Shown one piece after another: positions 3,872-44,965 of a stretch of 64,000 nt of DNA. A program made the position numbers and the translations under genes. Under the pieces are notes generated by a model. The model was not told the origin of the DNA, did no database searches, and saw nothing but the letters and a program-made list of their open reading frames with translations. The stretch's first letter is position 1, and every line of letters starts with the position of its first letter. Source of the DNA: a virus (taxonomy: Duplodnaviria > Caudoviricetes); IMG/VR virus record IMGVR_UViG_3300035180_001680; one strand, 5' to 3'.

Positions 3872-5395
3872 ATGACACTACAAACATCAGGTGCAATATC
3901 ACTAAGTGATATTCAAACAGAATTCGGGGGAGCTAATCCTATTGGACTGAATGAGTATTACGCTGGTGGTGGCTTAGTTCCATCGGGTACGACTGGAACT
4001 AATGGTGCAGTTCCTTCTAGTGGAGAAATTAACTTCTGGAACTTCTATGGGACGGCAGCAGCAGCAGCTGCTGCCACATATTGGATGTCTATGCTAACTA
4101 TTAACTCTGTTCAAACGGAAGACAACTATGGACAATCTATTGCCGTTGATGGGCATGGAAATGTATACATAACTGGATATGAAACAACACAGACTGCAGG
4201 TTATAACGATATCTTCATAGCTAAATACAATACAAGTGGGGTTATTCAGTGGCAAAGAAGATTAGGTGGAACGGACTATGATTATGGACAAGCTATTGCT
4301 GTTGATGGGTCTGGAAATGTCTATATTGCTGGATATGAAGCTTCACAGACTGCAGGTAATTACGATATCTTCATAGCTAAATACAGTACAAGTGGGGTTA
4401 TTCAGTGGCAAAGAAGATTAGGTGGAACGAGTACTGATGGTGGAGCTGGCATTGCTGTTGATGGGTCTGGAAATGTCTATATTGCTGGATATGAATATTC
4501 ACAGACTGCAGGTAATTACGATGTGTTTATAGCTAAATACAATACAAGTGGGGTTATTCAGTGGCAAAGAAGCTTAGGTGGAACGAGTACTGATTATGGA
4601 CAAGCTATTGCCGTTGATGGGTCTGGTAATGTCTATGTAACTGGATATGAAGTACAGACTGCAGGTAATTACGATGTGTTTATAGCTAAATACAATACAA
4701 GTGGGGTTATTCAGTGGCAAAGAAGATTAGGTGGAACGGGTGCTGATTATGGCACGAGCATTGCTGTTGATGGGTCTGGTAATGTCTATGTAACTGGATA
4801 TGAAACAACACAGACTGCAGGTAGTAACGATGTGTTTATAGCTAAATACAATACAAGTGGGGTTATTCAGTGGCAAAGAAGATTAGGTGGAACGAATAAT
4901 GACCGAGGATCGGGCATTGCCGTTGATGGATCTGGAAATGTCTATGTAACTGGATATGAATATTCACAGTCTGGTGGTGTTAATTACGATATCTTCGTAG
5001 CAAAGTATAACACAAGTGGGGTTATTCAGTGGCAAAGAAGAGTCTATAGTAGTACACATGACTTGTACGGTACGTCAATCGTAGTTAATGGAACCACATT
5101 TAGTGTGTGCGGCTACTATCAAAGTTCTCCTACACATGCATATGTGGCTGTTGGTTCAAATTCATTCATTGCAAGTCTACCGATAGATGGAACAAAAACA
5201 GGATCTAGTGTTACGTTTTCACAAGTATATGCAACACCAGTATTACAATATGCAGCTACTACATTAACGGATGCAGCTACTACATTAACGGATGCAGCTA
5301 CTACCTTAACGGATGCAGCTACTACCTTAACGGATGCAGCTACTACCTTAACGGATGCAGCTACTACCTACACTGCAGAAACACATACGATTTAA
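3872..5395 (+). CDS. Virion/tail-associated beta-propeller (SBBP-repeat) protein
   Basis: N-terminal MTLQTSGAISLSDIQTEFGG tail module; six IAVDGSGNVYxxG...IAKYNTSG.IQWQR repeats. Confidence 0.8.
   Translation: MTLQTSGAISLSDIQTEFGGANPIGLNEYYAGGGLVPSGTTGTNGAVPSSGEINFWNFYGTAAAAAAATYWMSMLTINSVQTEDNYGQSIAVDGHGNVYITGYETTQTAGYNDIFIAKYNTSGVIQWQRRLGGTDYDYGQAIAVDGSGNVYIAGYEASQTAGNYDIFIAKYSTSGVIQWQRRLGGTSTDGGAGIAVDGSGNVYIAGYEYSQTAGNYDVFIAKYNTSGVIQWQRSLGGTSTDYGQAIAVDGSGNVYVTGYEVQTAGNYDVFIAKYNTSGVIQWQRRLGGTGADYGTSIAVDGSGNVYVTGYETTQTAGSNDVFIAKYNTSGVIQWQRRLGGTNNDRGSGIAVDGSGNVYVTGYEYSQSGGVNYDIFVAKYNTSGVIQWQRRVYSSTHDLYGTSIVVNGTTFSVCGYYQSSPTHAYVAVGSNSFIASLPIDGTKTGSSVTFSQVYATPVLQYAATTLTDAATTLTDAATTLTDAATTLTDAATTLTDAATTYTAETHTI
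4127..5042 (+). repeat. Six near-identical ~156-bp coding repeats (one 153 bp)
   Basis: attgc(c/t)gttgat recurs at 4139, 4295, 4451, 4607, 4760 and 4916. Confidence 0.9.
5250..5369 (+). repeat. 21-bp tandem repeat, about 5.7 copies (encodes LTDAATT)
   Basis: Unit tgcagctactac(a/c)ttaacgga repeated head-to-tail. Confidence 0.95.
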
Positions 5396-14896: not shown

Positions 14897-17419
14897 ATGA
14901 AAGCACAGATAGTAATTGGGGCAAATTTCGGAGACGAAGGGAAAGGTGGCACAGTTGATTATCTTGCTTCCCAAGTTGATAATACGATTGTTGTTCGGTT
15001 TAATGGAGGCTCTCAGGCAGGACATTGTCAAACTGGAGATACTTTAATCACAACTCAGTTTGGACTTAAATATATTAAAGATGTTGTGGGAAATATTACT
15101 AACAGCGATGTAAGTTTTCCGCTAATTAATATGAACGGAGATATTGAACACACGAGTTGGCTGTTCACCGAACACTCAAAACAAGTAAACCGAATAACCC
15201 TTCAAAATGGAGTAGTACTTAAAGGGACTCATGCACACAAATACTATGTTTGGAATGGGAATACTGCTCAACTTGAGTGGGTTAAAATAGGAGATTTAAA
15301 CCCAAATGTCCACCAATTTATAGTTCCAAGATATTTCGACCAATATTTGGGTGTTATTCCTAACATTCAGTACGTTCAATCAGAAACTGATCATGTTCAC
15401 AATAAACGAAAGATTGATGTTGATATTATCGATCTTGAATTTTTAGCTTTTTTAACTGGAATTATTAATGGAGATGGACATTATGCTTCTCATGGAAGCC
15501 GAATTTCGATCCAATGTCACATTTCTCAACAGGACACAATTGATTATGTTGTTTCTGCGTTGACACTCATGAACATTCCTGTAAAAACACAGTCCCATCA
15601 TTCGAGTGACCAATGTATTACTATTGCGTTTGAGAGTAGTGACCTTATTAACATTTTACGAGACCAATTGGGGGTTGCAATTACAACTGGTGTTAACAAG
15701 TGTACCCCAAAGTTTGTATTACAGGGTACCAGAGGTATAATTCGTAGTTATATACGAGGTTTGTTTGACGCAGACGGAACTATTAAATTTCATAAACAAA
15801 AAACAACCACATATGGTCAAATTGGGTTTTCTAACATATCTTGGGAACTGGTGTCAGAGGTCCAACAATTGCTGTATTTATTTGGAATTCACTCAAAAGT
15901 TATAACAAATAAATTAAATAAAAAGCGGTCAAATTGTCAACGATCGTATGATTTAATTATTGCATCATATGATGCTATTGAATTGTTTGCACAAAACATA
16001 GGATTCCAGTCTGATATTAAAAACAATAAAGTGGTTGAGTTGTTGGCGTATAAACAAAACGCAAATAGTAATTGTAACACCAAAGGATATGTACTTAAAG
16101 TCCCCCCAAATATCAAAAAGGCAATATATAAACAACTAAATTGTGTATGTCATGATAGTGAAGGAATCCGAACTGGGTTTGTGGTCAACGAAAAGATTGA
16201 AAATTTTGAAAATATTGTAAACGTAGCAACGAACTATCATATAATCAATATTGAATCTGTTGACATGAATTTTAGTATCGAACAGGTATATGATGTTACG
16301 ATGCCTATAACACATAGTTATATTGCCAATGGATGTATATCTCATAACACAGTAGAAACTCCCGAAGGCCTTCGTCATGTGTTCCATCATTTTGGATCAG
16401 GGACATTAATTGGAAAACCGACATATCTGTCAAGGTTTTTTGTCGTGGACCCAGTTGCTTTCTATTCTGAGCATAATTCTTTTAATCATAAGGGAATCAA
16501 GCCAAAAGTATTTGTTGATGTGAATGCCTATCTTGTAACTCCATTTGATGTAGCAATCAATCAAACTGTTGAACGCGCTCGTGGAGAACGTAAACATGGA
16601 AGTTGTGGGTTTGGAATCAATGAAACTGTTGAGCGCAATACGACTCGAGCATTTCCTGGGTTTGGTACAACTGTTGCTGATATTCTTAATCCAGACGAAC
16701 TTCGTAAGAAATTAAAACAAATTCGAGATGATTATACACAAAGCCGCCTTGAACAACTTGGGGTTGCATGTGGTGCTCTTGATGAGTTTTATATGTTTGT
16801 TGAAGCAATCGAATGGTTCATTGATCGGTGTATGTATATGCTGGAAAACATAACCACAGTTACCAACCCGGAGTTCCTACACAACTACGATACGGTTGTT
16901 TTTGAAGGTGCGCAGGGATTGTTGCTTGATGAATTTCACCACTGGTTTCCTCATGTAACTCGGTCAAGGACAGGTGTGTTCAACGCTTGTGAAATTTTGA
17001 AAGAGATTGGAGTTCATGAAGCCGAAGTGTTCTATATCACTCGGTCGTACCTGACAAGACACGGAGCAGGGCCCTTGCCGTTTGAAGTAGATGGACCAAT
17101 CTATGAAGGAATTATTGATAATACGAACGTTCCCAATGAACACCAAGGAACGTTGCGGTATGCACCACTGAACTTTGATTTGTTGGAAGAAAGTATCATC
17201 AATGATTTGGAAACAGTGGCAGGTGTTAGATTGAGTCCGAAACTTGTTGTTACGTGCATGAACCAACTTCCTGAAAAAGTTAAGTATGTAGAAGACGGTG
17301 AAGTGGTCACTGGATGTAAATTTGATTTGATTTACAACCTTTCGTCTTTTGGTAAAAAATTTGATTCGGTGCTGTTGTCGTATAGTCCAACCAGGAATTT
17401 AATGTCCAGATTGGTGTAA
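14897..17419 (+). CDS. purA: Adenylosuccinate synthetase-like protein containing an intein
   Basis: GANFGDEGKG, RFNGGSQAGH|T, FEGAQGLLLD, VTRSRTG, TRSYLTRHGAGP. Confidence 0.85.
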   Translation: MKAQIVIGANFGDEGKGGTVDYLASQVDNTIVVRFNGGSQAGHCQTGDTLITTQFGLKYIKDVVGNITNSDVSFPLINMNGDIEHTSWLFTEHSKQVNRITLQNGVVLKGTHAHKYYVWNGNTAQLEWVKIGDLNPNVHQFIVPRYFDQYLGVIPNIQYVQSETDHVHNKRKIDVDIIDLEFLAFLTGIINGDGHYASHGSRISIQCHISQQDTIDYVVSALTLMNIPVKTQSHHSSDQCITIAFESSDLINILRDQLGVAITTGVNKCTPKFVLQGTRGIIRSYIRGLFDADGTIKFHKQKTTTYGQIGFSNISWELVSEVQQLLYLFGIHSKVITNKLNKKRSNCQRSYDLIIASYDAIELFAQNIGFQSDIKNNKVVELLAYKQNANSNCNTKGYVLKVPPNIKKAIYKQLNCVCHDSEGIRTGFVVNEKIENFENIVNVATNYHIINIESVDMNFSIEQVYDVTMPITHSYIANGCISHNTVETPEGLRHVFHHFGSGTLIGKPTYLSRFFVVDPVAFYSEHNSFNHKGIKPKVFVDVNAYLVTPFDVAINQTVERARGERKHGSCGFGINETVERNTTRAFPGFGTTVADILNPDELRKKLKQIRDDYTQSRLEQLGVACGALDEFYMFVEAIEWFIDRCMYMLENITTVTNPEFLHNYDTVVFEGAQGLLLDEFHHWFPHVTRSRTGVFNACEILKEIGVHEAEVFYITRSYLTRHGAGPLPFEVDGPIYEGIIDNTNVPNEHQGTLRYAPLNFDLLEESIINDLETVAGVRLSPKLVVTCMNQLPEKVKYVEDGEVVTGCKFDLIYNLSSFGKKFDSVLLSYSPTRNLMSRLV
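15026..16348 (+). mobile_element. Intein (441 aa) with LAGLIDADG homing endonuclease
   Basis: Starts CQTGDTLI, ends YIANGCISHN followed by Thr; LTGIINGDG and IRGLFDADG motifs. Confidence 0.93.
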
Positions 17420-17802: not shown

Positions 17803-17831
17803 TTGACATAGATATTTTAATAATATATACT
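17803..17831 (+). promoter_or_regulatory. Strong sigma70-like promoter upstream of the riboswitch
   Basis: TTGACA-17 nt-TATACT. Confidence 0.8.
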
Positions 17832-17883
17832 TGTGTCAGATGTTAGAAATTTAGTTCTGACATTGAACTAAAAAGAAAAAGAA

Positions 17884-17975
17884 AGTTCTTGTAAAGGGCA
17901 AACCAATTCGAAAGATTGGGACGCAAAGTAACCCGGCCTAAAGAGAAATCCATGGCAGCGGAACTACCTGGAATC
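17884..17975 (+). ncRNA. c-di-GMP-I (GEMM) riboswitch aptamer
   Basis: AGGGCAAACCAATTCGAAAGATTGGGACGCAAAG..CCGGCCTAAA..ATGGCAGCGG..CTACC closely matches the Vibrio Vc2 aptamer from memory; GAAA tetraloop and receptor present; G at the position-20 equivalent. Confidence 0.92.
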
Positions 17976-18014
17976 TTCTTAGATGTAACACTAATCTAAT
18001 TGGAGATCCAAAAA

Positions 18015-18773
18015 ATGAAAAAAACCCTTATTGCTCTTGCTCTTGCTTCAATCTCTACTGCTGCCTTTGCTACTGGTTCCGACGCTACTGTTTATGCAAA
18101 TAGTCAAACGTCTACCTATGCCCAAGCTGGTAATGGTGGTACTTCCCATTCAACTGCTGGCAACTTTGCAGTTGGCGCTGGCGACACCGATTCTAATGTT
18201 CGTCGTGGGATGTTGTCCGTTACCGTTCCCAACTGTAACGTTCCAACCACAGCTACTGTGTTTGGTGATGTCACTACAGTAACTGGTGAAGCATCCACTA
18301 TGGGTGGCTCGTTTGCTAAGAACGTTTCTACAGGAAACGGTACTGGTGAAGCCCACGCACTTGGTGTAGCTGTTTCCGACGTAGCTAAAACACGTAATGG
18401 TGTTGGTGGAACTGCAAGCGCGTTGACCAAAACTTGGGCAAATGCCGGAACTGATCAAAGTCACTCGTCTTTTGCTTCACAAAGCGCCAACTTCGAAGCA
18501 CAGGGTGCAACTGGTTTGTTGATTGTTACCCACGACGAGACCGCCAGCATCCATCACCACACCGTCACTATTCCTCACGTTGACTACGTTGGAGTTGGTG
18601 CTGCATCCACTGGTACCTCTGACGTTCCTGCTGCACATCAGGTGTATAGCTTGAGCAACGGTGGTTGCCACGGTGGTTGCCAAACTGGTCCAGGTAATGA
18701 TGATGCTGGTAGCTACACCAATGCGAACGCAACTACACTGACTAACGTTACCTACGGCAACATTCCTCAGTAA
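18015..18773 (+). CDS. Secreted Ala/Gly/Thr/Ser-rich protein
   Basis: Signal peptide MKKTLIALALASISTAAFA; GGAG RBS; low-complexity mature region. Confidence 0.8.
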   Translation: MKKTLIALALASISTAAFATGSDATVYANSQTSTYAQAGNGGTSHSTAGNFAVGAGDTDSNVRRGMLSVTVPNCNVPTTATVFGDVTTVTGEASTMGGSFAKNVSTGNGTGEAHALGVAVSDVAKTRNGVGGTASALTKTWANAGTDQSHSSFASQSANFEAQGATGLLIVTHDETASIHHHTVTIPHVDYVGVGAASTGTSDVPAAHQVYSLSNGGCHGGCQTGPGNDDAGSYTNANATTLTNVTYGNIPQ

Positions 18774-18791
18774 TAGTTAAGTTGACTGAAT

Positions 18792-18818
18792 TACTATGCG
18801 TGGTAACCACGCATAGTA
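18792..18818. repeat. Perfect 27-bp inverted repeat between operon genes 1 and 2
   Basis: tactatgcgtggt-a-accacgcatagta; no U-tract. Confidence 0.8.
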
Positions 18819-18847
18819 CAACAATTCCATCAAAAAGGAAAAAGTAA

Positions 18848-19405
18848 ATGAAAAAAATTGCTCTTATTATCGTGTTGACAATGTCGATGCCGGTGTTTGC
18901 TGCTGGTACAAGTTCGAGTTCTACGTCTGATTCGTATGCGTCGAGTGATGGTAACTCCCAAACCATTATCTACAACAACCCGGCCATTCCAACTACAACC
19001 ACACAGAATGTTAACTACTCTGGTGGAACAACATCTGATGTGAACACAACAGTCAACGGTACCACGACTCAGAACATTGTCCAGTCAGGAACAACCGGTC
19101 AAAACGTGAACTACAGTGGAACACAGACCATTAAAAACGTGCCTTCTGTTGGCGGTCCTGCTCTAACAAGCTCGAACGACACTTGTATGGGTTCTACTTC
19201 TGGTGGTATCGGTGTTGCTGGCTTCGGTTTCAGTCTCGGTTCTACGTGGACTGACAAGAACTGCAAAATGTTGAAGAACTCTCGTGAACTTTGGAACATG
19301 GGTATGCGTGCTGCTTCTATGGCTCGCATGTGCATGGACAGTGAGAATCGCGAGGCGTTGGAACTGACTGGTTTTACTTGCCCTACCAAAAAAGAAGACA
19401 AGTAA
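18848..19405 (+). CDS. Secreted protein with Cys-containing C-terminal domain
   Basis: Signal peptide MKKIALIIVLTMSMPVFA; Thr/Ser/Asn-rich linker; DTCMGSTSGG...FSLG...NC..LK..REL..MG...MC. Confidence 0.8.
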   Translation: MKKIALIIVLTMSMPVFAAGTSSSSTSDSYASSDGNSQTIIYNNPAIPTTTTQNVNYSGGTTSDVNTTVNGTTTQNIVQSGTTGQNVNYSGTQTIKNVPSVGGPALTSSNDTCMGSTSGGIGVAGFGFSLGSTWTDKNCKMLKNSRELWNMGMRAASMARMCMDSENREALELTGFTCPTKKEDK

Positions 19406-19432
19406 TCCATAACCCAACGAAAGGAGAGTAAC

Positions 19433-19873
19433 ATGAAAGTTTTAATTACGACACTACTTGCAGCGGCTTCGTTCTCTGCCCTGGCAGGAGATTTGGTAAT
19501 AGAACGTACGCCTCTTGGTTCCGGAACTCCAGGTCTTGAAGGTAGAGAAGCAACATATCTCATGCCAGATGGAATGCTGTTTGCTCCTCAATATCTTCCT
19601 AGCTTTCCAACAGCTGCGGTCATCTGGCCGAGGGTTGTTGAAGTTCAGTGTGAGTTGAAAGATAAAGTCACAGTTTGTGACGGATACCAATGGACGCCTA
19701 AATTGGGACGTGGTGAATATATTTTCATCGTTCCAGTTAACAAACCAGTTCCTCCTGCTCCGATTATCGTAACAAACACGATAGAACGAGTGGTGACAGT
19801 TCCGCTACCTGCTCAACCAGTAGTGGCACCTGAGACGCTGCCTCCAGCGCCCGACAAGAAAATTGGTGGTTAA
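19433..19873 (+). CDS. Secreted protein with Pro-rich C-terminus
   Basis: Signal peptide MKVLITTLLAAASFSALA; two Cys; GGAGAG RBS. Confidence 0.8.
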   Translation: MKVLITTLLAAASFSALAGDLVIERTPLGSGTPGLEGREATYLMPDGMLFAPQYLPSFPTAAVIWPRVVEVQCELKDKVTVCDGYQWTPKLGRGEYIFIVPVNKPVPPAPIIVTNTIERVVTVPLPAQPVVAPETLPPAPDKKIGG

Positions 19874-19875
19874 TG

Positions 19876-19903
19876 AAAATGGGGACTTCGGTCCCCATTT
19901 TTT
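19876..19903 (+). terminator. Intrinsic terminator closing the riboswitch operon
   Basis: aaaatggggac-ttcg-gtccccattttt. Confidence 0.9.
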
Positions 19904-19929: not shown

Positions 19930-20286
19930 ATGATTACTGTAAGCATTTTAGTGGCAACAATTTGTTTCTCTGTTAACAACATAGAGGAATGCCACCCTAT
20001 ATTAATTGGTAAAAATACTCCAATCGGAACGTTTCCAATCACACATATGACTACAAAGAAACCAGGGTATGGTGGAGATATTTTAGTATTCAAAGAAACA
20101 TCAACCACCCTTTATGCTATTCATCGTCTCTGGAAATTTAACCCTAAGCAAAAACGTGAGCAACGTTTAGCAACAGCTACCCCAAAAGATAATATAATCA
20201 CAAGTGGTTGTATTAACGTTGAGTCTAAAGTGTACGAACGATTAACAGCGTGTTGTTCAAAAGAACCACTTGAAATCAAGAAGTAA
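19930..20286 (+). CDS. L,D-transpeptidase-like (YkuD-fold) protein
   Basis: PGYGGDIL.F, YAIHRLW, IITSGCINV (catalytic His and Cys equivalents). Confidence 0.7.
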   Translation: MITVSILVATICFSVNNIEECHPILIGKNTPIGTFPITHMTTKKPGYGGDILVFKETSTTLYAIHRLWKFNPKQKREQRLATATPKDNIITSGCINVESKVYERLTACCSKEPLEIKK

Positions 20287-20316: not shown

Positions 20317-20709
20317 ATGAAATCGATTTTGTTTGCTTTACCCCTGTTTGTTTTTGGTTGTAGCTCGTCGCCCCCACCAAAACCTGAAAATACTGAATGT
20401 ATCCAAGTTGCAAAGTACGCTCGAACAGTTGCTACACTTCGTGATATGAATGTTTCTGAATCAGACATTGATTCATTTTCGCAAGTTCCTATTGCACTCA
20501 CATTTCCGTATCGAAAGGTGAGAAGTGAAGTATATGCTACAAAAACTGAAACCCCTGCGGATGCGTTTACTAAGTTTTATCACAGATGTGATGAGGCTGG
20601 ATATTCAACACTTTTACAAGCACTCCAAGAAGATGAACGAAGAAGAATTGCAGAAGAGAAGAAAAAAAGCAGCGGAGGAAGAAGCAACACGTCAACAACG
20701 AATTATTAA
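20317..20709 (+). CDS. Lipoprotein (paralog of 22597)
   Basis: Lipobox VFGC; CIQVAKYARTV.TL...LTFPY..VR..VY...TP..AFT motif shared with 22597. Confidence 0.75.
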   Translation: MKSILFALPLFVFGCSSSPPPKPENTECIQVAKYARTVATLRDMNVSESDIDSFSQVPIALTFPYRKVRSEVYATKTETPADAFTKFYHRCDEAGYSTLLQALQEDERRRIAEEKKKSSGGRSNTSTTNY

Positions 20710-20756: not shown

Positions 20757-21415
20757 GATGAAATTAGCCGCTGCCTATGGGGCACACAATCGGAATTAAC
20801 ACCGGCAGGTTAGGGTTTTTGAATGATTTCTCTTCTGTTCGTGAATTTTTAGTGAACAGTTTAGAAAAACTATTCACTAAACCACTTGTTGATGTGGATG
20901 AACGATTGCTTCTTTCTGTTTCTATCGAGACCAAGACTGAAATTGACTATAATATTGCCGTATCTGTCAATGAGTTTTCGATCGCTCATCTCGAGTCAGA
21001 TACAATTCTGAGTTTTGATATGTTCATTGATGATCGTTTTGCCGGAAGTCACCGAGCGAACAGTGTGATCGTAGCGACCCCAACTGGATCTACGGCATAC
21101 TCTTTGTCTGCTGGAGGGGCGATACTACATCCGTATATGGATGCAATCGAAATCGTTCCTGTTGCTTCTCTGCGAATGGCTTCTCGGCCGATTGCCGTTA
21201 GTGGAAAATCTGTTGTCAGAATCGTTGCTAATAGTAACGAACGGCAAGGTCCCATCATCATTCGATCTGATGGACAAAAAGTGCTGACCTGGAATAATAG
21301 TCGTGAAGCAATCGAAATTGTTGTAAAATGTACTGAAAATAAAGCGAAAATGCTTCACTCGAACGATTGGAACTTTTTCGATGTTCTGTCTACAAAAATG
21401 GGTTGGTTGACTTAG
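20757..21415 (+). pseudogene. nadK: NAD kinase copy 1, N-terminally truncated and frameshifted
   Basis: GINTGRLGFL, VNE, TPTGSTAYSLSAGG, DGQ present; GGDG motif absent; upstream KLAAAYGA is out of frame. Confidence 0.7.
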
Positions 21416-22179: not shown

Positions 22180-22454
22180 AAGATAAAGACAAGATGTTGA
22201 AGTTTTCGAAACTTTCAACACCAAAAGATCCGGGTTACGGTGGAGACGTTTTGCAGTTTTACGAGGATTCAAAAAAAGTATACGCAATTCATCGACTTTG
22301 GCTTTTGAGACCATCTGAACATCGTGCTGCTCGTATATTATCAGAGAATCCCAAACAACACATGATAACACATGGTTGTATTAATGTGGAACCTGAAGTT
22401 TATGATAAGTTGGTAAATTGTTGTTTAACTGATAAATTGGAAATAAGAAAATGA
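22131..22454 (+). pseudogene. Chimera: NADAR N-terminal fragment fused in frame to L,D-transpeptidase C-terminal half
   Basis: GIVWTSSEHAYQAAK...STPKD joined at 22230 to PGYGGDVL..YAIHRLW..ITHGCINV. Confidence 0.65.
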
Positions 22455-22597
22455 AGATTCTAGTATTTTTTGGGGAATTTGTAACTGTGGCACTAGTTGG
22501 TATAGTAATTGGTATAGCAATTGGTATAGCAATTGGTATAGTAATCGGGACCGGTTTAATCCATTATGCTAAACAGATATATAAGTTCATTTTCTAA
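22451..22597 (+). CDS. Small membrane protein with glycine-zipper repeat
   Basis: MKILVFFGEFVTVALVGIVIGIAIGIAIGIVIGTGL...; 12-bp tandem DNA repeat; coupled start and stop. Confidence 0.55.
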   Translation: MKILVFFGEFVTVALVGIVIGIAIGIAIGIVIGTGLIHYAKQIYKFIF

Positions 22598-23055
22598 TGA
22601 AGAAATTTATAGCAGTATGTTTTGTATTAACTCTTTCAGCTTGTAGTGAAATCCCAACACAGCAACCGGTAGTTGATACACAGTGCCAAGTTGTAGCTTC
22701 ATATGCAAGAACAGTTGATACGTTAAAAAGAATGAATGTGGGAATAGAAGACTTAGACCAATATTCTGTTAAATCGAGTGTGTTAACTTTTCCTTATAAA
22801 GCAGTAAGACTTAATGTTTATTCTAATAATTACAAAACACCAACGGAAGCGTTTACTGTATTATATACTAAGTGTTTGGATGGGGGATACAACAATCTAT
22901 TAGTTACTTTAAGAGAGGTCAGCAAACAACAAATTATCGTTGAACAAACAAACAGTGAGAAACTTGAAGATTTAGCACCCAGTTGGAACCAACAGTTGTC
23001 TCCTTTTGCTGGTCAACTTAAAATGTCAACCAAATTAAGATACGCCCCTCAATAA
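22597..23055 (+). CDS. Lipoprotein (paralog of 20317)
   Basis: Lipobox LSAC; CQVVASYARTVDTL motif. Confidence 0.75.
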   Translation: MKKFIAVCFVLTLSACSEIPTQQPVVDTQCQVVASYARTVDTLKRMNVGIEDLDQYSVKSSVLTFPYKAVRLNVYSNNYKTPTEAFTVLYTKCLDGGYNNLLVTLREVSKQQIIVEQTNSEKLEDLAPSWNQQLSPFAGQLKMSTKLRYAPQ

Positions 23056-23184: not shown

Positions 23185-24015
23185 ATGAAGTTTGATCGAG
23201 TGGTTATTATCCAAAAACTGGATAATAAAGAAGATGTTATTGTAAAACACATTGTATCGTCTATGATTCATTTAGTTGAAAAATACAATATTCCTGTTGT
23301 GTTAGATTCAAATTCTACTTATAATTCAAACACATTGTTTATAGCAGTAGGTGGGGATGGAACAATGCTATACACCCTAAAAAAAGCAGCTGCTGTTGGG
23401 GCTCTTGCTATTGGTGTAAATGCTGGGAAAGTTGGTTTTTTGACAGATGTTTTTCGTGAACAATTATTTACAACACTGGCTCCATTATTGTCTGATCAAT
23501 CATACGTTCCACCAATTCTTCTACGAATGATGTTAAAAACTTCTGTTTGTGGGTCTGAATTTATTTCGATGAATGAATTAACAATTGCCCATTCAGAGTC
23601 AGATACTATTTTAAACTTTGGGTTATTTATAGATGGTGAATTTGCTGGAAGTCACCGTGCAAACAGTGTGGTAATATCTACACCAACGGGTTCAACAGCA
23701 TATGCATTATCAGCAGGTGGCGCAATTTTACATCCTTCTATGGAAGCTATTGAAATTGTCCCAGTTGCCTCTTTGAAAATGGCTTCCCGACCTATTGTTG
23801 TGAGTGGACACTCCACGATTCGAATTGAAGCAAAATACTCACAAGGGTTACCGGTTGTGATTCGTTCCGACGGACAAAAAGCCTTTGTCCAATCGAGTGA
23901 TACAAAAGAAGTAGAGATTACAGTTAAACAATCAGATCAAAAGGCTAAAGCTATTTTAAGTAAAGATTGGAACTTTTTTGATGTGTTGTCGACGAAAATG
24001 GGTTGGTTATCTTAA
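23185..24015 (+). CDS. nadK: NAD kinase (intact copy)
   Basis: GGDGTML, GVNAGKVGFL, MNE, TPTGSTAYALSAGG, DGQ. Confidence 0.92.
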   Translation: MKFDRVVIIQKLDNKEDVIVKHIVSSMIHLVEKYNIPVVLDSNSTYNSNTLFIAVGGDGTMLYTLKKAAAVGALAIGVNAGKVGFLTDVFREQLFTTLAPLLSDQSYVPPILLRMMLKTSVCGSEFISMNELTIAHSESDTILNFGLFIDGEFAGSHRANSVVISTPTGSTAYALSAGGAILHPSMEAIEIVPVASLKMASRPIVVSGHSTIRIEAKYSQGLPVVIRSDGQKAFVQSSDTKEVEITVKQSDQKAKAILSKDWNFFDVLSTKMGWLS

Positions 24016-39245: not shown

Positions 39246-41168
39246 ATGGAAAATATCTTTGACTTGTATCGCTCACAATATAAAGAACACTCAACTGAAA
39301 CTATGAGTATTCAAGAGTATCTTGAATTATGCAAAAAAGAGCCGTTAACATATGCTACAGCTGGAGAGCGTATGTTACAAGCAATAGGGGAACCAAAAAT
39401 GGTAAACACGAAAGACGATCCCCGCCTTAGCCGTATTTTTATGAATCGTGTCATTAAAGTTTATCCTGCTTTTGAAGATTTTTATGGTATTGAAGATTCT
39501 GTTGAGCAGATAGTTTCATTTTTTACACACGCTGCTCAAGGTCTAGAAGAGAAGAAACAAATCCTCTATCTGCTTGGTCCTGTCGGAAGTTCCAAGTCTA
39601 GTATTGCAGAACGTTTGAAAGAATTAATGGAAAAAATTCCATTTTATGCGATTGAAGGTTCTCCAATCTTTGAATCACCTCTTGGATTATTCAACGTTAC
39701 AGAACACGGAAAGTTTTTAGAAGATAATTATGGTATTGATCGCCGTTATCTTGGACACATTATGTCTCCTTGGGCCGCAAAACGCTTACGTGAATTTGAT
39801 GGAGATATTTCCAAATTCCGAGTTGTTAAACGTTGGCCTTCTCGTCTTAACCAAGTTGCAATTACAAAAACAGAACCTGGTGATGAAAACAACCAAGATA
39901 TTTCGTCTCTCGTTGGTAAAGTAGATATTCGAAAATTGGAAGAATACTCTCAAGATGATCCAGATGCATACAGTTATAGTGGTGGTCTGTGTTTAGCCAA
40001 TCAGGGGATTCTTGAATTCGTTGAAATGTTCAAAGCACCAATCAAAATTTTACATCCTCTGTTAACAGCGACACAAGAAGGCAATTATAATGGTGTTGAG
40101 GGTGCAGCTATTCCATTTAGTGGTGTAATTCTTGCACATAGTAACGAAAGTGAATGGACTGCTTTCCGAAACAATAAAACGAATGAAGCATTTTTGGATC
40201 GTGTTTATATTGTTAAAGTTCCATATTGCTTGCGTGTATCAGATGAAACCCAAATTTACCGCAAGCTTCTTCGAGGTAGTGCTTTGTATGCATCACCATG
40301 TGCGCCTGGAACACTGGAAATGATGGCTCGTTTCGCTGTATTGACACGATTGAAAGAACCTGGTAATTCTGCTTTGTATTCAAAGATGCGTGTATATGAT
40401 GGAGAAAATCTGAAAGATAGTGATCCTAAGGCGAAACCCATTCAAGAGTATCACGACGAAGCAGGTGTAGATGAGGGCATGAGTGGATTATCAACTCGAT
40501 TTGCATATAAGATCCTTTCGAGGGTGTTCAATTATGATTCTCAAGAAGTTGCTGCGAATCCAGTTCATTTAATGTATGTTCTCGAAAAACAGATCGAACA
40601 AGAACAATTTCCACCAGACACAGAAGAAAGATATATTGATTTCATTAAAAGTGTTCTGGCTCCAAAATATGCAGAATATTTGGACAAAGAAATACGGACT
40701 GCATACTTTGAAAATGCAGATGAATATGGTCAAAATCTATTCGAGCGGTACTTGACATATGCGGATGCTTGGATTCAAGATGTTGATTTTCGAGATCCTG
40801 ATACAGGTGAAATGTACGAACGGAGTGCTTTGAATTCAGAATTGGAAAAAGTTGAGAAACCAAGCGGAATCGCCAATCCAAAAGATTTTCGCAGTGAAGT
40901 TGTCAGTTACGTTCTTCGTCAACGAGCTGCTAATGGTGGAAAGACTCCTGACTGGAAATCATATGAGAAGATTAAAGATGTAATCGAAAAACGAATCTTC
41001 GCTTCAACAGAAGAATTATTGCCCGTAATAACCTTTACTTCAAAGGGAAGTTCTGAAGATCAGAAAAAACATAATGGGTTTGTTCAGCGTATGGTTGAAA
41101 AAGGATACACTGAAAAACAAGTAAGATTATTGGTGGAGTGGTTCCTTAGATGGCGCAAAAATAATTAA
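39246..41168 (+). CDS. prkA: PrkA/YeaG family AAA+ / serine kinase
   Basis: LGPVGSSKSS, EPGDENNQDISSLVGKVDIRKL, EFVEMFKAPIK.LHPLL.ATQEG. Confidence 0.95.
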   Translation: MENIFDLYRSQYKEHSTETMSIQEYLELCKKEPLTYATAGERMLQAIGEPKMVNTKDDPRLSRIFMNRVIKVYPAFEDFYGIEDSVEQIVSFFTHAAQGLEEKKQILYLLGPVGSSKSSIAERLKELMEKIPFYAIEGSPIFESPLGLFNVTEHGKFLEDNYGIDRRYLGHIMSPWAAKRLREFDGDISKFRVVKRWPSRLNQVAITKTEPGDENNQDISSLVGKVDIRKLEEYSQDDPDAYSYSGGLCLANQGILEFVEMFKAPIKILHPLLTATQEGNYNGVEGAAIPFSGVILAHSNESEWTAFRNNKTNEAFLDRVYIVKVPYCLRVSDETQIYRKLLRGSALYASPCAPGTLEMMARFAVLTRLKEPGNSALYSKMRVYDGENLKDSDPKAKPIQEYHDEAGVDEGMSGLSTRFAYKILSRVFNYDSQEVAANPVHLMYVLEKQIEQEQFPPDTEERYIDFIKSVLAPKYAEYLDKEIRTAYFENADEYGQNLFERYLTYADAWIQDVDFRDPDTGEMYERSALNSELEKVEKPSGIANPKDFRSEVVSYVLRQRAANGGKTPDWKSYEKIKDVIEKRIFASTEELLPVITFTSKGSSEDQKKHNGFVQRMVEKGYTEKQVRLLVEWFLRWRKNN

Positions 41169-41390
41169 TCTTTATAATCGAGGAGTTAGAGAGGAACCAT
41201 TGGTTCCTCTCTATTGTTCATACTTACACTTCTTTTTGTTATTTTCTGTCGCTGTTAATATTTGCAGATTCGATAAACAACGTAAACCACACACAGTATC
41301 ACTGTTCACACTTCATACTTCAAAAGTAACATCTGTTGTAAGGGGGCAATTTTTGATATATAATAGAAACTATTATTCACGGAGTACAGA

Positions 41391-42710
41391 ATGAGTTTTC
41401 AAATTTTGGACCGAAGAAAGAATGGTAAAAATAAAAGCTCTGCAAATCGTCAGCGTTTTATCCGGCGAGTAAAAAGTAGAGTTCGGGAAGCTGTTAAGAA
41501 ATCTATCACATCGGGAAACATTCGTGATATTATTTCACCTGGCGACCAGAATGTTAATATCCCAACAAAAGATATTAATGAACCTCATTTTACTCATTCG
41601 TCTGATTCAGGTGAACTTGAACGTATCTTACCTGGAAATAAAAAATATGTTCCAGGAGACAGAATCCCAAAACCACCTCCTCAAGATGGTAAGGGTGGGA
41701 ATGGTTCCGGTGGAGGTGGTGAACAGAACGATGACTTTGAGTTCGCTATTACTCACGACGAATACATGGATGTGTTCTTTGAAGATTTGGAGCTTCCCGA
41801 TTTAGTTAAAAAGGGGCTTGCTCAAACAGAAGAAATAAAGGTAAAACGAGCTGGGTTTGCTGTTGATGGTAATCCAAGTAAATTAAACTACGTACGTTCT
41901 CTTCGACAGTCAGTTGGACGGCGGGCTGCTTTACGTACTCCAAAAAAACGAAAACTACGAGAGCTAGAAACAGAACTTTCGGAACTTTATGAATTCATTG
42001 AAAATAATAAAGATGAAAATGGAAATCTAATAACGGAGTGTGAAGAACAACAACTTCGGATTATTCAACTTGAACATGAAATAGCTGTTCTTAAAAAGAA
42101 AATTAAGGCTGTTCCATTTATTGATTCAATTGATTTGCGTTATAACAGATTTGAGATAGTTCGAACCCCAATTACTCAAGCTGTGATGTTTTGTGTCATG
42201 GACGTATCTGGTAGTATGGGTGAATATGAAAAAGATTTAGCAAAACGATTTTTCATGTTATTGTATTTATTTCTACACCGAAATTACAAATATGTGGATG
42301 TCGTATTTGTTAAACATCACACAGCAGCTTTTGAAGTAGACGAAGAAAACTTCTTTTATTCTCGTGAATCAGGCGGAACCATGGTTTCTTCCGCAACAAC
42401 TCTCGTGAAAAACATAATTGAAGAACGATATGATCCATCGAAATGGAACATTTATGTGTGCCAAGCAAGTGATGGAGATAACGATGTGGATGATTGTCAA
42501 CAGGTTGTCGAAACGCTTATTAAAGATATTCTTCCTATGTCACAATATTATGCTTACGTCCAAGTTAATAATCCTGATAACATCATGTCGCAGGTATACC
42601 AACATTACTTATTGGGGAAACATGAGAATTTTGCAATGGCTATAATTGAAGAACCAAGTGATATATATCCTGTTTTCCACAACCTATTCGAAAAGGACAC
42701 ATCCAAATGA
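41391..42710 (+). CDS. yeaH: YeaH/YhbH (DUF444) vWA-like protein
   Basis: DRRKNGKNKS..NRQRF, AVMFCVMDVSGSM, ESGGT.VSS, QASDGDN. Confidence 0.93.
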   Translation: MSFQILDRRKNGKNKSSANRQRFIRRVKSRVREAVKKSITSGNIRDIISPGDQNVNIPTKDINEPHFTHSSDSGELERILPGNKKYVPGDRIPKPPPQDGKGGNGSGGGGEQNDDFEFAITHDEYMDVFFEDLELPDLVKKGLAQTEEIKVKRAGFAVDGNPSKLNYVRSLRQSVGRRAALRTPKKRKLRELETELSELYEFIENNKDENGNLITECEEQQLRIIQLEHEIAVLKKKIKAVPFIDSIDLRYNRFEIVRTPITQAVMFCVMDVSGSMGEYEKDLAKRFFMLLYLFLHRNYKYVDVVFVKHHTAAFEVDEENFFYSRESGGTMVSSATTLVKNIIEERYDPSKWNIYVCQASDGDNDVDDCQQVVETLIKDILPMSQYYAYVQVNNPDNIMSQVYQHYLLGKHENFAMAIIEEPSDIYPVFHNLFEKDTSK

Positions 42711-44965
42711 GTGAACCAATTACCACGTCAAGTGATTGGAATTTTGAATTAATTGAAAAGTTTTATAAAGAAATAGAAACCATTGCTGTAGAAGAACTGG
42801 GTTTGGACGTATATCCAAACCAAATTGAAGTGATTTCTGCAGAGCAGATGTTGGACGCATATTGTATAACTCCTGACCACAAATTGTTAAAACAAGATTT
42901 GAGTTGGATTGAGGCAGGTAATATTAAGGTTGGTGATGTGGTGTTAGGATTTGACGAACATGGACCTCATCGTAGATATCGTTCTGCGATCGTTCAAGGT
43001 GCAGAACGAGTTACAAAACCGGTATATTGTGTTACTTTATCATCTGGAAAGCAATTTAAAGTAACAGGTAATCACTTGTGGCTTGTTCGACAGCAAAAGG
43101 GAGCAACATCTGTGCTTCAGTGGAGAGCAACAACACAACTACGAACAACAAAAGATACAAGATTTTCCGCATCTCGTATACCTAAATTAATGGATGTGTG
43201 GTCTGAAATAAACACCAAAGACGCTGGCTGGCTGGCTGGTATGTATGACGGTGAAGGAAATATTATTCGTGGATCAGTACAGGCGTTGTGTATTTCCCAG
43301 AATGAAGGTCCGACCTTAAACAAAATCAAACAAATAATTGGCGAATTGGGATATACGTTCTATCAAGCTGATAAAAAGTCAGGACGGGGGATTTGTAAGA
43401 CAATTGGATTAACTGGTTCTTCCAGTGCAGATCAACTTCGTTTCTTAGGAGAAATTCGTCCTGAACGAATTATTTCAAAGATATCTTTTGACCAACTAGG
43501 TTTAATGAAGACGTCCAATTACGAAGAGGTGGAATCAGTACAATTAATTGGTGACCTTGAAATTGTAAAGATTACAACATCAACCGGCACCTTCGTTTGT
43601 GATGGTTATCCAATGCACAATTCAAGTGTTGGGATGCCAATTATGTACAACCACTGGTCGTTTGGTAAAGACTTCATCACAAACAATAATGGCTACAAAC
43701 AAGGTCAAATGGGTCTTGCATATGAAATTGTATTGAATACTAATCCATGCCTTGTGTATTTAATGGAAGAGAATACCATGATGATGCAAGCATTGGTTAT
43801 AGCTCATGCTGCTTTTGGACACAATGCTTTTTTTAAGAATAACTATTTGTTTAAAGAATGGACGCAAGCCGACACAATCGTTGATTATCTGGTATTCGCG
43901 AAGCATTATATTTCCGAGTGTGAGGAGAAATATGGTGTTCAACAAGTTGAGAGTTTGTTGGATGCTTGCCACGCTCTCCAAAATTATGGTGTGGACAAAT
44001 ACCACCGTTCTGGAAAATTGTCTGTTGAAAAAGAACGAGCAAAACAGAATGAACGAGCGATTTATGTTCAAAGTCAACTAAACGATTTGTGGAGAACAAT
44101 TTCAGGTTCCCAAGATGTTGTTGTGGACAAGGGAACGAATGATGTGTTCCCTGCTGAACCACAGGAAAATATATTATATTTCTTGGAGAAACATTCCCCG
44201 AACCTTGAAACATGGCAACGAGAGATTATTCGTATTGTTCGTAAGATCGCTCAATATTTCCACCCTCAGAGAGCCACAAAAGTAATGAATGAGGGTTTTG
44301 CGACCTTTATCCATTACACAATCATGCAACGGTTGAGAGAAAAAGGATTAATTACGGATGGGTTTATGATGGAATTTCTTCGGGATCATACTAACGTTGT
44401 AATGCAACCATCATTTGAGTCAAAATATTTTAGTGGACTAAATCCATATGCACTCGGATTTGCAATGTTTCAGGACATTCGACGTATTTGTGAGAATCCT
44501 ACTGAAGAAGACAAACGTTGGTTCCCTGAATGGGCTGGGGATCCTGACTGGATAAGCGTTGTCAAGCATGCCGTTGTGAATTTTAAAGATGACGGTTTCA
44601 TTTTACAGTTCTTGTCTCCGACAGTAATGCGCAACATGAAGATGTTTTCTTTGAAAGATTCTCGCAATGAACATAACTATGAAGTAACAGCAATTCATAA
44701 TGATGAAGGATTTAAACATATTCGTAGAGTTCTTTCCGAACAACACAACCCATCTTTGTTAATCCCAGATATTCAAGTTGTAAGGGTTGACAAGTGGGGA
44801 ACACGAAAATTATTACTTCAACACAATATCGTTGATGGGAAGTTATTGGATGCGAAACAAGCTGATAGAGTAGTATCATTAATACATACTCTTTGGAAAT
44901 ACGATGTGGTATTATGCTCTGTTGATGATAGAGGACAGGTAAAAGCTACACATTATTCCTTATAA
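42707..44965 (+). CDS. spoVR: SpoVR/YcgB family protein containing an intein
   Basis: YPNQIEVI.AEQMLDAY|SSVGMP..Y.HWSFGK, IAHAAFGHNAFFKNN, MNEGFA. Confidence 0.93.
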   Translation: MSEPITTSSDWNFELIEKFYKEIETIAVEELGLDVYPNQIEVISAEQMLDAYCITPDHKLLKQDLSWIEAGNIKVGDVVLGFDEHGPHRRYRSAIVQGAERVTKPVYCVTLSSGKQFKVTGNHLWLVRQQKGATSVLQWRATTQLRTTKDTRFSASRIPKLMDVWSEINTKDAGWLAGMYDGEGNIIRGSVQALCISQNEGPTLNKIKQIIGELGYTFYQADKKSGRGICKTIGLTGSSSADQLRFLGEIRPERIISKISFDQLGLMKTSNYEEVESVQLIGDLEIVKITTSTGTFVCDGYPMHNSSVGMPIMYNHWSFGKDFITNNNGYKQGQMGLAYEIVLNTNPCLVYLMEENTMMMQALVIAHAAFGHNAFFKNNYLFKEWTQADTIVDYLVFAKHYISECEEKYGVQQVESLLDACHALQNYGVDKYHRSGKLSVEKERAKQNERAIYVQSQLNDLWRTISGSQDVVVDKGTNDVFPAEPQENILYFLEKHSPNLETWQREIIRIVRKIAQYFHPQRATKVMNEGFATFIHYTIMQRLREKGLITDGFMMEFLRDHTNVVMQPSFESKYFSGLNPYALGFAMFQDIRRICENPTEEDKRWFPEWAGDPDWISVVKHAVVNFKDDGFILQFLSPTVMRNMKMFSLKDSRNEHNYEVTAIHNDEGFKHIRRVLSEQHNPSLLIPDIQVVRVDKWGTRKLLLQHNIVDGKLLDAKQADRVVSLIHTLWKYDVVLCSVDDRGQVKATHYSL
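42863..43621 (+). mobile_element. Intein (253 aa) with partial LAGLIDADG domain
   Basis: Starts CITPDH, ends FVCDGYPMHN followed by Ser; WLAGMYDGEG motif. Confidence 0.92.

Follow-up and report, generated by a model that had tools for sequence, protein, structure and literature searches.

Positions 18,015 to 19,903 of the window, the whole 64-kb stretch of viral DNA that was analysed, are read, with moderate confidence, as the regulated leading section of a mobile cassette of envelope genes, four to five in number, that is common to giant phages and Burkholderiales. With the same moderate confidence, the locus represents a phage envelope cassette under a c-di-GMP sensor RNA, carried by an uncultured giant phage; the cassette itself is widespread and uncharacterised, and giant phages have it in common with bacteria of soil and water. 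Published accounts of phages that read c-di-GMP through a riboswitch are limited to Clostridioides difficile prophages (PMC3649979; PMC10333796), and here a giant phage appears to do so with the riboswitch coupled to envelope genes. The domain encoded by the second gene defines a large unnamed protein family. The cassette is shared by phages and culturable bacteria, among them Comamonas testosteroni and Variovorax, and its function is consequently directly open to genetics. The reading that we favour, and rate slightly short of an even chance, is an envelope or surface module that is tethered to peptidoglycan and has a variable subunit made in abundance, its translation being on at high c-di-GMP. 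If true, the tether would be a new class of protein-peptidoglycan attachment and a new phage route to remodelling of the host surface.

Positions 17803-19903 contained a promoter-like site, a c-di-GMP-I aptamer, three genes with Sec signal peptides and a canonical terminator, as read from the letters and from Rfam. These and all other features described here were on the plus strand. The promoter-like site (17803-17831) was of the sigma-70 type (TTGACA-17-TATACT, 11/12 matches), with one change in the relative G001. It was followed by gene 1 (18015-18773, 252 aa), gene 2 (18848-19405, 185 aa) and gene 3 (19433-19873, 146 aa). The signal peptides of genes 1, 2 and 3, read from sequence, had a Lys in the n-region, a hydrophobic core and a small-x-small cleavage site (AFA/T, VFA/A and ALA/G, respectively), and homologues of the exported genes retained them. 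The intrinsic terminator (19879-19903; 8-bp GC-rich stem, UUCG loop, U6 run; -18.9 kcal/mol) was read from the letters and was missed by a simple terminator scanner. Beyond it were gene 4 (19930-20286), which was predicted to encode a bare YkuD-type L,D-transpeptidase domain and was a cassette member outside the riboswitch unit here, and gene 5 (20317-20709), which encoded a lipoprotein. A second pair of gene 4-like (22194-22454, N-terminally short) and gene 5-like (22597-23055) genes occupied 22194-23055. The first-pass annotation had described a riboswitch, three Sec-exported products and a strong terminator, and all of these elements were found in the letters, by Rfam or by folding. Its count of exactly three genes was right for the riboswitch transcription unit in this phage, but not for the conserved cassette of four to five genes. 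Its outline of the products was also borne out: a low-complexity gene 1, a gene 2 with a linker and a Cys-containing domain with a hairpin, and a Cys-paired gene 3 with a Pro-rich tail.

The locus DNA had zero matches among 50,697 phage records, and tblastn searches of the same kind of records with genes 1 and 3 found no match. Searches of Pfam, NCBIfam and PHROGs with genes 1-3 returned nothing except a weak match of gene 2 to the unnamed phrog_20531; genes 2, 3 and 5 had no Pfam or NCBIfam match. Neither the cassette nor phage YkuD genes like gene 4 turned up in the literature searches. The earlier remark that no described system with this layout was recognised agreed with the searches, in which none matched. 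No integrase or other lysogeny gene was noticed within the 64-kb window.

Gene order was highly consistent among relatives. Among 55 Burkholderiales loci, gene 2 lay directly 5' of gene 3 wherever the sequence spanned both positions, and the same was true of 30/30 viral loci. Gene 4 came next in 25/30 viral loci, and overall a YkuD gene was located 3' of the gene 2-gene 3 pair in most phages and some bacteria. In most loci gene 4 began 2-60 nt after gene 3. Gene 5 followed gene 4 in the phage cassettes (synteny in L070, L075, L083, L099, and L080), while bacterial cassettes contained gene 4 without gene 5. Other phage contigs encoded gene sets of 244/174/121/114 aa and 251/160/140/114 aa. The Comamonas cassette was chromosomal, beside a divergent LuxR-type (LuxR/GerE) response regulator, and the cassette was stably chromosomal in approximately 35 Variovorax genomes.

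The c-di-GMP-I (GEMM-I) aptamer matched Rfam model RF01051 at 17887-17971 over the full model (positions 1-87), scoring 64.2 bits (gathering score 35; E 2.9e-10). Aptamer homologues were found in relatives G001 (58.2 bits), L070 (59.2 bits) and L075-L077 (57.5 bits), in each case immediately 5' of the cassette. In the Rfam alignment the window aptamer had a G directly 5' of GGCAAAC, as in Vc2; this is the position that we take to govern ligand choice between c-di-GMP and 3',3'-cGAMP. A purine-rich 5' strand (17880-17890) is proposed, from complementarity, to pair with 17970-17980 as a P1 helix (duplex -7.6 kcal/mol). In the minimum free energy fold, 17970-18009 formed a Shine-Dalgarno (SD)-sequestering hairpin (arm-arm duplex -13.9 kcal/mol), of which the left arm (17970-17984) comprised both the anti-SD and the P1 3' strand, and the right arm (17994-18009) held GGAG at 18002-18005. 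The GAAGA(A)/UCUUC complementarity of P1 was also present in L070 and L075, together with equivalent hairpins of different sequence. In three divergent leaders, then, the logic of an SD hairpin and a competing P1 was retained while the sequence was altered. The expression platform looks translational, having an SD hairpin and no terminator, and ligand-activated. Because the 3' flank of the aptamer serves as both P1 strand and anti-SD, high c-di-GMP would stabilise P1 and free the ribosome-binding site of gene 1, and we infer that high c-di-GMP turns translation on.

The aptamer class and its place in the leader of exported or adhesive protein genes resemble Vc1 and Vc2 of Vibrio cholerae. Phage carriage has a precedent in the PhiCD119-type C. 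difficile prophages, which carry lysis-module riboswitches (PMC3649979; PMC10333796). Unlike those temperate clostridial phages, the phage here is uncultured, approximately 338 kb in size and has a Gram-negative-type host. It further differs from Vc1, Vc2 and PhiCD119 in its apparently translational, ligand-activated platform and in controlling an uncharacterised cassette. Riboswitch control applied to the operon in the window, where the aptamer leads the three genes, but was not a property of the cassette: the riboswitch was found in only about three lineages, and scans of 12 bacterial loci and of most phage loci did not show it. That most cassettes lack it counts against the favoured reading. 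The neighbourhood suggested as a search target in bacteria, with the same trio behind a GEMM motif, was not seen, all 12 of the bacterial loci checked being without a riboswitch.

Gene 1 encoded an exported protein rich in G/S/T/A/N, the sequence of which reads as short strands with Gly-rich turns between them. Four homologues aligned with the window's own sequence at 47-55% identity. Gene 1 had no Pfam match up to E 1 and no NCBIfam or PHROG match, and ten further proteins, either from gene 1 itself or from its positional equivalents elsewhere, had zero Pfam matches up to E 10. Its Atlas model (pTM 0.68) had neighbours at a TM of only ~0.35, several of which were outer-membrane barrels. Gene 1 was not read as a barrel because the terminal aromatic residue of barrels was mostly missing from it and its positional equivalents, and this candidate was rejected. 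Comparison with the bacterial 'gene 1' proteins gave an hhalign E of 0.0022 at 13% probability for Oxalobacteraceae, and a Variovorax match confined to the signal peptide; this weak homology counts against the favoured reading.

Mature gene 1 and the gene 2 linker together formed a hypervariable block of ~1 kb (18057-19114), in which alternative alleles were found between conserved flanks. Between G001 and the window the flanks were 89% and 97% identical and the middle was unalignable. Contigs from run X1 joined 18056 to 19027 with 985 other letters between, and contigs from run X2 joined 18090 to 19115, in both cases beside the window's allele; alternative alleles of the block therefore coexisted within single metagenomes. 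A diversity-generating retroelement was dropped as the source of this variability, as the 64-kb window contained no template repeat of that type and no repeat family involving 18015-19405.

A perfect 12-bp intercistronic stem-loop without a U-tract was located 3' of gene 1 (18792-18818). Strong stem-loops of unrelated sequence were found between genes 1 and 2 in 12/15 phage and bacterial loci. Additionally, three paralogues of gene 1 stood in tandem in Comamonas aquatilis (L008), and some phages had the gene 2 domain fused to a low-complexity region resembling gene 1, an arrangement that fits a free subunit and an anchored copy. We propose that gene 1 is an abundant, variable subunit. The first-pass annotation had suggested a possible subunit of an amyloid-like or fimbrial polymer; the stem-loop, the tandem paralogues and the fusions agree with an abundant structural subunit, while the amyloid or fimbrial part was without homology.

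Gene 2 was predicted to consist of a disordered T/S/N/Q linker leading into a beta-hairpin (residues 114-135; pLDDT 76-85) and three helices (residues 137-173; pLDDT >90), with Lys as the last residue. The linker contained Q/N-containing imperfect repeats as read from the sequence, and the domain had four invariant Cys. Reading the sequence against the model, the hairpin was amphipathic, with I/V/F/F/L/W on one face and G/S/T on the other. The domain was approximately 70% or more identical across hundreds of contigs and was present in 1934 representative clusters at E <= 0.001 (640 at E <= 1e-10). It was found alone in small Pelagibacter, Achromobacter, and Ralstonia phages. The family profile had no match among PDB sequences, the model had none by Foldseek against PDB and VIA-align wide (best Z 3.0), and the Atlas shape search returned only unnamed or mis-named Pseudomonadota clusters. 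Judging by its residue pattern, the hairpin domain may lie in or on the outer membrane. A Porin_7 match of one gene 2 homologue was set aside, being sub-threshold and in the signal and low-complexity part.

The gene 3 product combined a small beta domain, in which a single Cys pair was invariant, with a Pro-rich tail of 49 aa that finished in KKIGG. For its model, Foldseek against PDB and VIA-align wide gave no Z >= 2, and the Atlas shape search gave TM values below 0.32. We propose that genes 2 and 3 act as one unit. A long Pro/Ala-rich spacer was borne by one or the other: gene 2 had 95-185 additional residues where the gene 3 tail was 7-13, and only 6-54 additional residues where gene 3 had a tail. 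The complex prediction for the gene 2 domain and gene 3 scored 0.00 and was uninformative either way.

The tail of gene 3 was also associated with gene 4. In bacterial loci where the tail was 34-36 aa, Pro-rich and ended in KK-x-x-(E/G/Q), gene 4 lay within 60 nt wherever there was room, while gene 4 was missing from all of the bacterial loci (>40) in which gene 3 ended in a stub of 7-13 aa. This co-occurrence tracked clades, Variovorax and Comamonas differing from Oxalobacteraceae, Polaromonas, and phages, and thus represents few independent events. Five viral loci (L086, L090, L095, L098, and L100) kept a 45-88-aa tail and had no gene 4 match; four of these tails ended with a Cys near the terminal Lys and the fifth ended in AKKAKK. 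The clade pattern and these five loci both weigh against the favoured reading.

Within the gene 4 family (alignment A4), H65 and G93-C94 were invariant and correspond to the catalytic His and Cys of the H...GC motif. Six of seven members matched PF03734; searched by itself, the window's own full-length copy gave no match. The best match (E 3.9e-5) scored 24.7 bits against a cut-off of 23.4 and covered positions 4-139 of the 146 in the profile. The language-model neighbours of gene 4 were YkuD and Tlde1 clusters, the Tlde1-domain ones mostly viral, and its PHROG match was phrog_38499. Gene 4 had no signal peptide and no lipobox, and the YkuD profile began at residue 3; this lack of an export signal counts against a peptidoglycan tether. 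Since the terminator separates gene 3 from gene 4, the enzyme in the window is not under the riboswitch, which counts against the tether as well. Gene 5 (alignment A8) had a lipobox Cys and two further conserved Cys.

In Escherichia coli, Braun lipoprotein (Lpp) is served by the L,D-transpeptidases ErfK/YbiS/YcfS and has a terminal lysine. The cassette is similar in that a dedicated YkuD-domain enzyme and a small exported protein with a lysine-bearing tail co-occurred in bacterial loci. Unlike Lpp, gene 3 encodes neither a lipoprotein nor a coiled coil, and its lysines are subterminal; unlike ErfK/YbiS/YcfS, gene 4 has no signal peptide. By sequence, the gene 3 C-terminus KKIGG and the gene 2 C-terminal K would be the counterparts of the Lpp C-terminal lysine that is joined to meso-DAP. 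The gene 3 lysines lie 4-5 residues from the C-terminus, counting against a tether of the Lpp type.

In the favoured reading, a rise in c-di-GMP would stabilise P1, free the ribosome-binding site of gene 1 and turn translation on. Gene 1 would then be made in excess, with the stem-loop protecting its message or causing partial termination, and would act as an exposed, variable structural subunit. Gene 2 would be the anchor, with a disulfide-stapled amphipathic hairpin domain in or on the outer membrane and a linker of gene 1-like composition that is exchanged along with gene 1. Gene 3 would pair with gene 2, the Pro-rich spacer being able to span the periplasm, and the YkuD enzyme would couple the lysine-bearing end of gene 3 to peptidoglycan, as happens with Lpp. 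In this way the phage would give sessile hosts with high c-di-GMP a coated or stiffened envelope during a long infection, the likeliest purpose being to mask receptors from competing phages or to hold the cell in the matrix. A fuller form of this proposal, which we regard as rather unlikely in all its parts, is that genes 1-4 build a new envelope or surface structure from a hypervariable subunit, an oligomeric outer-membrane hairpin anchor, a Pro-rich strut and a dedicated L,D-transpeptidase, lacking a signal peptide, that fixes the strut to peptidoglycan. Burkholderiales would use this structure for their own ends, and giant phages would have captured it, in one clade placing it under a c-di-GMP riboswitch to re-dress biofilm hosts.

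A quite unlikely alternative is superinfection exclusion or receptor masking by separate periplasmic and outer-membrane proteins, involving neither a polymer nor a covalent tether. Gene 1 and the gene 2 linker would obstruct the receptor-binding proteins of competing phages or act as decoys for them, and the conserved gene 2 domain would bind a conserved component of the host envelope. The export signals on all products fit this, as does the occurrence of the gene 2 domain alone in small phages; a conserved domain beside a hypervariable block that is polymorphic within samples is typical of an arms race, and expression at high c-di-GMP, hence in a dense, phage-rich biofilm, would be sensible. 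Known exclusion proteins, however, are each encoded by one small gene, whereas four to five genes, including one for a peptidoglycan enzyme, make up this cassette, which is stably chromosomal in Variovorax and has its own regulator in Comamonas. The tandem gene 1 paralogues and the stem-loop 3' of gene 1 likewise point to a bulk structural product. We judge improbable the amyloid-like or fimbrial polymer of the first-pass annotation, in which gene 1 would supply the subunit, gene 2 the nucleator and gene 3 the chaperone. Curli (csgBAC/csgDEFG) and the Caulobacter holdfast-anchor Hfa proteins are comparable in that they too come from small operons encoding exported strand-turn-strand proteins of low complexity, one partner being anchored; the strands and Gly-rich turns of gene 1 and the Q/N repeats of the gene 2 linker suit such a polymer, the fusions of low-complexity region and gene 2 domain resemble an anchored nucleator, and the divergent LuxR/GerE-type regulator in Comamonas recalls csgD. 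The ten gene 1 relatives or equivalents were also without a named family, so that no competing claim arises from them. Yet no sequence or fold homology to CsgA/B/C/E/F/G or HfaA/B/D was found; the one weak gene 1 language-model neighbour that carries HfaD scored 0.80, which is chance level. Curlin repeats (Pfam Curlin_rpt) were absent from gene 1 (to E 1) and the ten relatives (to E 10), as were usher and PapD-type families, and no Fap match was found. Nor did the cassette encode anything homologous to a known secretion pore for amyloids or fimbriae: genes 2, 3 and 5 had no match to a CsgG-type lipoprotein channel with CsgE/F, and the only lipoprotein, gene 5, was missing from bacterial cassettes. 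Among the matches listed for the gene 3 model in fold searches there was no chaperone, including none of the PapD-like type, although that fold itself is not thereby excluded. The fold search that had been suggested (Foldseek/PDB), run with the gene 2 and gene 3 models, matched nothing, and with the Pfam null for gene 1 and its relatives and no PDB sequence match, the subunit, nucleator and chaperone roles were left without homology support. A polymer of this kind also gives no role to the YkuD gene, which curli and Hfa lack, or to the gene 3 tail.

Alternatively, gene 4 could be a Tlde1-like L,D-carboxypeptidase or exchange enzyme in a peptidoglycan-remodelling or effector-immunity module, released at lysis or from the virion, with gene 5 as its periplasmic inhibitor and genes 1-3 functionally separate. 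A YkuD-like domain of ~115 aa without a signal peptide, followed by a small periplasm-directed protein, is shared with the type VI L,D-transpeptidase effector-immunity pairs Tlde1/Tldi1, and the mostly viral Tlde1-domain neighbours of gene 4, the duplication of the gene 4-gene 5 pair in the window and the terminator between genes 1-3 and gene 4 here agree with it. We nevertheless find this distinctly improbable: there was no type VI context and no Pfam Tlde1 match, bacterial cassettes carry gene 4 without gene 5, and the enzyme is tied to genes 2-3, following gene 3 by 2-60 nt in most loci and tracking the gene 3 tail exactly in bacterial loci. That the products are ordinary virion structural or assembly proteins that chance to follow a riboswitch is scarcely credible, even with tail-fibre-like genes elsewhere in the window and the many unassigned structural genes of jumbo phages. 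Each of the three products begins with a cleavable Sec signal peptide, bacterial chromosomes carry homologous cassettes at sites outside prophages, and no PHROG structural category was assigned. The analysis bore out neither of two outcomes that the first-pass annotation had named as refuting it, namely virion components and characterised enzymes.

One Variovorax cassette was chromosomal and beside a Tad locus. Accessory genes of a Tad/Flp pilus were considered and dropped, since tad/cpa linkage was found in only 4/55 bacterial loci (L020, L026, L029, and L054).

The stretch, part of a ~338-kb contig of an uncultured phage, was contained in public runs from sediment and microbial-mat metagenomes. 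A c-di-GMP-I aptamer at 17887-17971 matched the Rfam model end to end (64.2 bits; threshold 35), and a near-consensus sigma-70-type promoter lay 56 nt upstream of it. Three ORFs followed (gene 1, 18015-18773; gene 2, 18848-19405; gene 3, 19433-19873), each starting with a textbook Sec signal peptide, and the unit ended in a terminator at 19879-19903 consisting of a GC-rich hairpin and a U6 run (fold -18.9 kcal/mol). The first-pass annotation, which had described a c-di-GMP riboswitch operon of secreted proteins, was right in its coordinates and in how it characterised the proteins.

Directly 3' of the aptamer, a hairpin pairing 17970-17984 with 17994-18009 buried the Shine-Dalgarno (SD) motif GGAG (18002-18005); its arm-arm duplex had a computed energy of -13.9 kcal/mol. 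The same pyrimidine run could alternatively pair with a purine run 5' of the aptamer (17880-17890; computed energy -7.6 kcal/mol), where the P1 helix of the c-di-GMP-I class forms. The leaders of two other phage loci, L070 and L075, differed in sequence and kept both competing helices, GAAGA(A)/UCUUC and anti-SD/SD. From this recurrence we infer that the leader would act as a translational switch turned on by c-di-GMP.

Gene 3 had 32 homologues. Pattern scanning, limited to a single genome for each species, located gene 3 in 55 Burkholderiales loci (~35 in Variovorax, ~10 in Comamonas, the rest in Polaromonas and Oxalobacteraceae, the latter including Noviherbaspirillum, Actimicrobium, Herminiimonas and others), and gene 3 was likewise present in 30 viral contigs from IMG/VR, which reached 385 kb. 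Gene 2 was immediately upstream of gene 3 in every bacterial or viral locus covering both positions, and was nearly always preceded by a 220-280-aa exported protein consisting of 60-73% G/S/T/A/N; in some phages this G/S/T/A/N-rich region and the gene 2 domain instead made up a single fusion protein of 378-468 aa. Downstream of gene 3, a 114-120-aa homologue of window gene 4 (19930-20286) occurred in 25 of the 30 viral loci and likewise in the Oxalobacteraceae and Polaromonas loci. The next gene in phage cassettes often encoded a lipoprotein homologous to window gene 5 (20317-20709). Since relatives carry genes 4 and 5 after gene 3, the window terminator splits a conserved cassette in two. Genes 4 and 5 were also present as a second copy (22194-23055). 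An NAD-kinase-like gene lay at 20777-21415, and a 53-nt repeat (21362-21414 and 23962-24014; 85% identical) marked a second copy 2.6 kb downstream, with the duplicate YkuD-like and lipoprotein pair between them; the arrangement as a whole suggests segmental duplication.

The C-terminal ~90 residues of gene 2 were exceptionally well conserved, with identities of roughly 70% and upward across hundreds of metagenomic proteins. An exhaustive HMMER search found 1934 representative clusters at E <= 0.001, of which 640 reached E <= 1e-10. Four Cys were invariant. AlphaFold2 modeled the domain as a 10+10-residue hairpin (mean pLDDT 76-85) and three helices (>90). Read against the model, the sequence placed I, V, F, F, L and W on one hairpin face versus G/S/T on the other, a pattern that, as modeled, is that of a membrane-inserting or oligomerising hairpin. 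Gene 2 had no match in Pfam, PDB sequences or fold searches. Gene 3, which consists of a small beta domain, with a single Cys pair that never varied, followed by a conserved tail, had no match in fold searches. Gene 1 had only four homologues (47-55% identity), and its links to the bacterial equivalents were weak or compositional. Gene 4 is, by sequence, a minimal YkuD domain: six of seven family members matched PF03734, the best spanning profile positions 4-139 of 146, His65 and Gly93-Cys94 were invariant, and its language-model neighbours were YkuD and Tlde1 clusters. No signal peptide was found in gene 4.

Among bacterial loci, a Pro-rich gene 3 tail of 34-36 aa ending KK-x-x-(E/G/Q), its lysines subterminal, was present exactly where gene 4 was present; in all >40 bacterial loci lacking gene 4 the tail was only 7-13 residues. 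Tail and gene 4 were both present in most viral loci. Five viral loci with no gene 4 match kept a long tail, four with a different ending and one ending AKKAKK. The co-occurrence followed clades. Where the tail was absent, gene 2 carried a Pro/Ala-rich extension of 95-185 aa (Variovorax) or an extension of 51-61 aa (Comamonas), compared with 6-54 aa where the tail was present. The spacer thus moves from one protein to the other, which is what joint action as one unit would predict. Between genes 1 and 2, a strong stem-loop of 8-14 bp, unrelated in sequence among loci, was found in 12 of the 15 loci compared, which included phage and bacterial ones, and Comamonas aquatilis (L008 2829-5160) carried three tandem, nearly identical gene 1-like paralogues upstream of gene 2. 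Both features are characteristic of a main structural subunit that is produced in larger amounts than its accessory proteins.

The nearest relative, G001, shared 89% identity over a first segment (promoter, riboswitch, signal peptide) and 97% over a second that starts at the gene 2 domain; the intervening ~1 kb was not alignable, with gene 1 at 30% identity. Metagenome contigs aligned to the locus revealed coexisting alleles. In run X1, probably the source run, a minor contig (depth 10; main form ~48) linked 18056 to 19027 via 985 other letters. In run X2, a form skipping 18090-19115 was dominant (depth ~154-200) and the window's own allele was present at depth ~6 with zero differences. A repeat search for the variable block in the 64-kb window found no diversity-generating retroelement template repeat. 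With alleles coexisting and no such template, the block looks like a recombining, diversifying cassette between signal peptide and anchor domain, which fits an exposed product.

In Comamonas testosteroni an AlpA-like gene and a divergent response-regulator/GerE gene lay ahead of the trio, and the whole unit was present twice, one copy among integrases and IS elements. Noviherbaspirillum carried phage-type replication genes followed by the four-gene form. In one Variovorax species group the cassette adjoined a Tad locus, a linkage seen in only 4 of the 55 loci. These contexts indicate that the cassette is a mobile and not a virion module. Flanks of many viral loci (L078-L093) held ClpX-like and ribosomal protein S21-like genes before the cassette and, after it, a gene for a caspase-like (GINY...GC) protein whose C-terminus carries a membrane helix; Pfam calls in locus L004 were ClpX, S21, HSP20 and ClpS. 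Just downstream of the cassette were a permuted tmRNA on a 141-kb viral contig (L102 4989-5286; 75 bits) and, in a Variovorax locus, a C4 antisense RNA (P1/P7-type) match (L029 6733-6821).

Aptamers of the c-di-GMP-I class preceded the cassette in the window, G001, L070 (before gene 1) and L075-L077 (immediately ahead of a long gene 2; no terminator precedes gene 4). None was found in viral loci L069 and L071, 24 other scanned viral loci or 12 bacterial loci. The closest relatives of window gene 3 were the riboswitch-bearing copies, so the riboswitch was likely acquired once, in one phage clade. Two cassette-carrying Oxalobacteraceae genomes used this riboswitch class elsewhere, before other exported proteins and a pilin cluster: two copies preceded tandem 543- and 556-aa exported proteins in Actimicrobium (L104 165-4233), and one preceded a type IV pilin-like cluster in Noviherbaspirillum (L106). 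None was found in Variovorax, Comamonas or Polaromonas. Published phage c-di-GMP riboswitches are those of PhiCD119-type prophages (PMC3649979, PMC10333796). The aptamer adds a member to a known riboswitch class, and the whole is a variation on a known kind of system, an operon in which a riboswitch gates genes for exported surface proteins. The cassette itself, which has neither a name nor an assigned family or structure, may be a new envelope system; it occurs widely, tractable bacteria included.

The best-supported account of the cassette is an envelope module. Gene 1 would be a variable, abundant exported subunit, gene 2 a conserved hairpin anchor whose linker co-varies with that subunit, and gene 3 a partner contributing a lysine-ended strut about as long as the periplasm is wide. 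By analogy with Lpp and ErfK/YbiS/YcfS, gene 4 would most plausibly be a dedicated YkuD enzyme fixing this end to peptidoglycan. In the window's phage clade the exported part would be translated at high c-di-GMP. Weak points of this account are the absent export signal of gene 4, the subterminal position of the gene 3 lysines and the clade-bound co-occurrence.

The chief alternative is that the products mask receptors or exclude superinfecting phages with no polymer involved. The amyloid or fimbrial subunit/nucleator/chaperone set proposed in the first-pass annotation is compatible with several features, but no homology supports it and it offers no explanation of gene 4. Genes 4 and 5 could possibly form an effector-immunity pair, a reading that does not account for the association of gene 4 with the tail of gene 3.

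Other features were seen outside the cassette. An 840-aa PurA-like (adenylosuccinate synthetase) ORF at 14897-17419 contained a large insertion that resembles an intein: it has a LAGLIDADG-type motif (GLFDADG) and ends in HN, with T as the next residue. Three large ORFs at 39246-44965 resembled, at the DNA level, the YeaG (PrkA-type kinase) regions found in huge uncultured phages, in Ralstonia phage RsoM2USA and in an Enterobacter phage. Long tandem repeats of 156-nt and 21-nt units (4033-5390) lay within a 507-aa ORF near tail-fibre-like genes.
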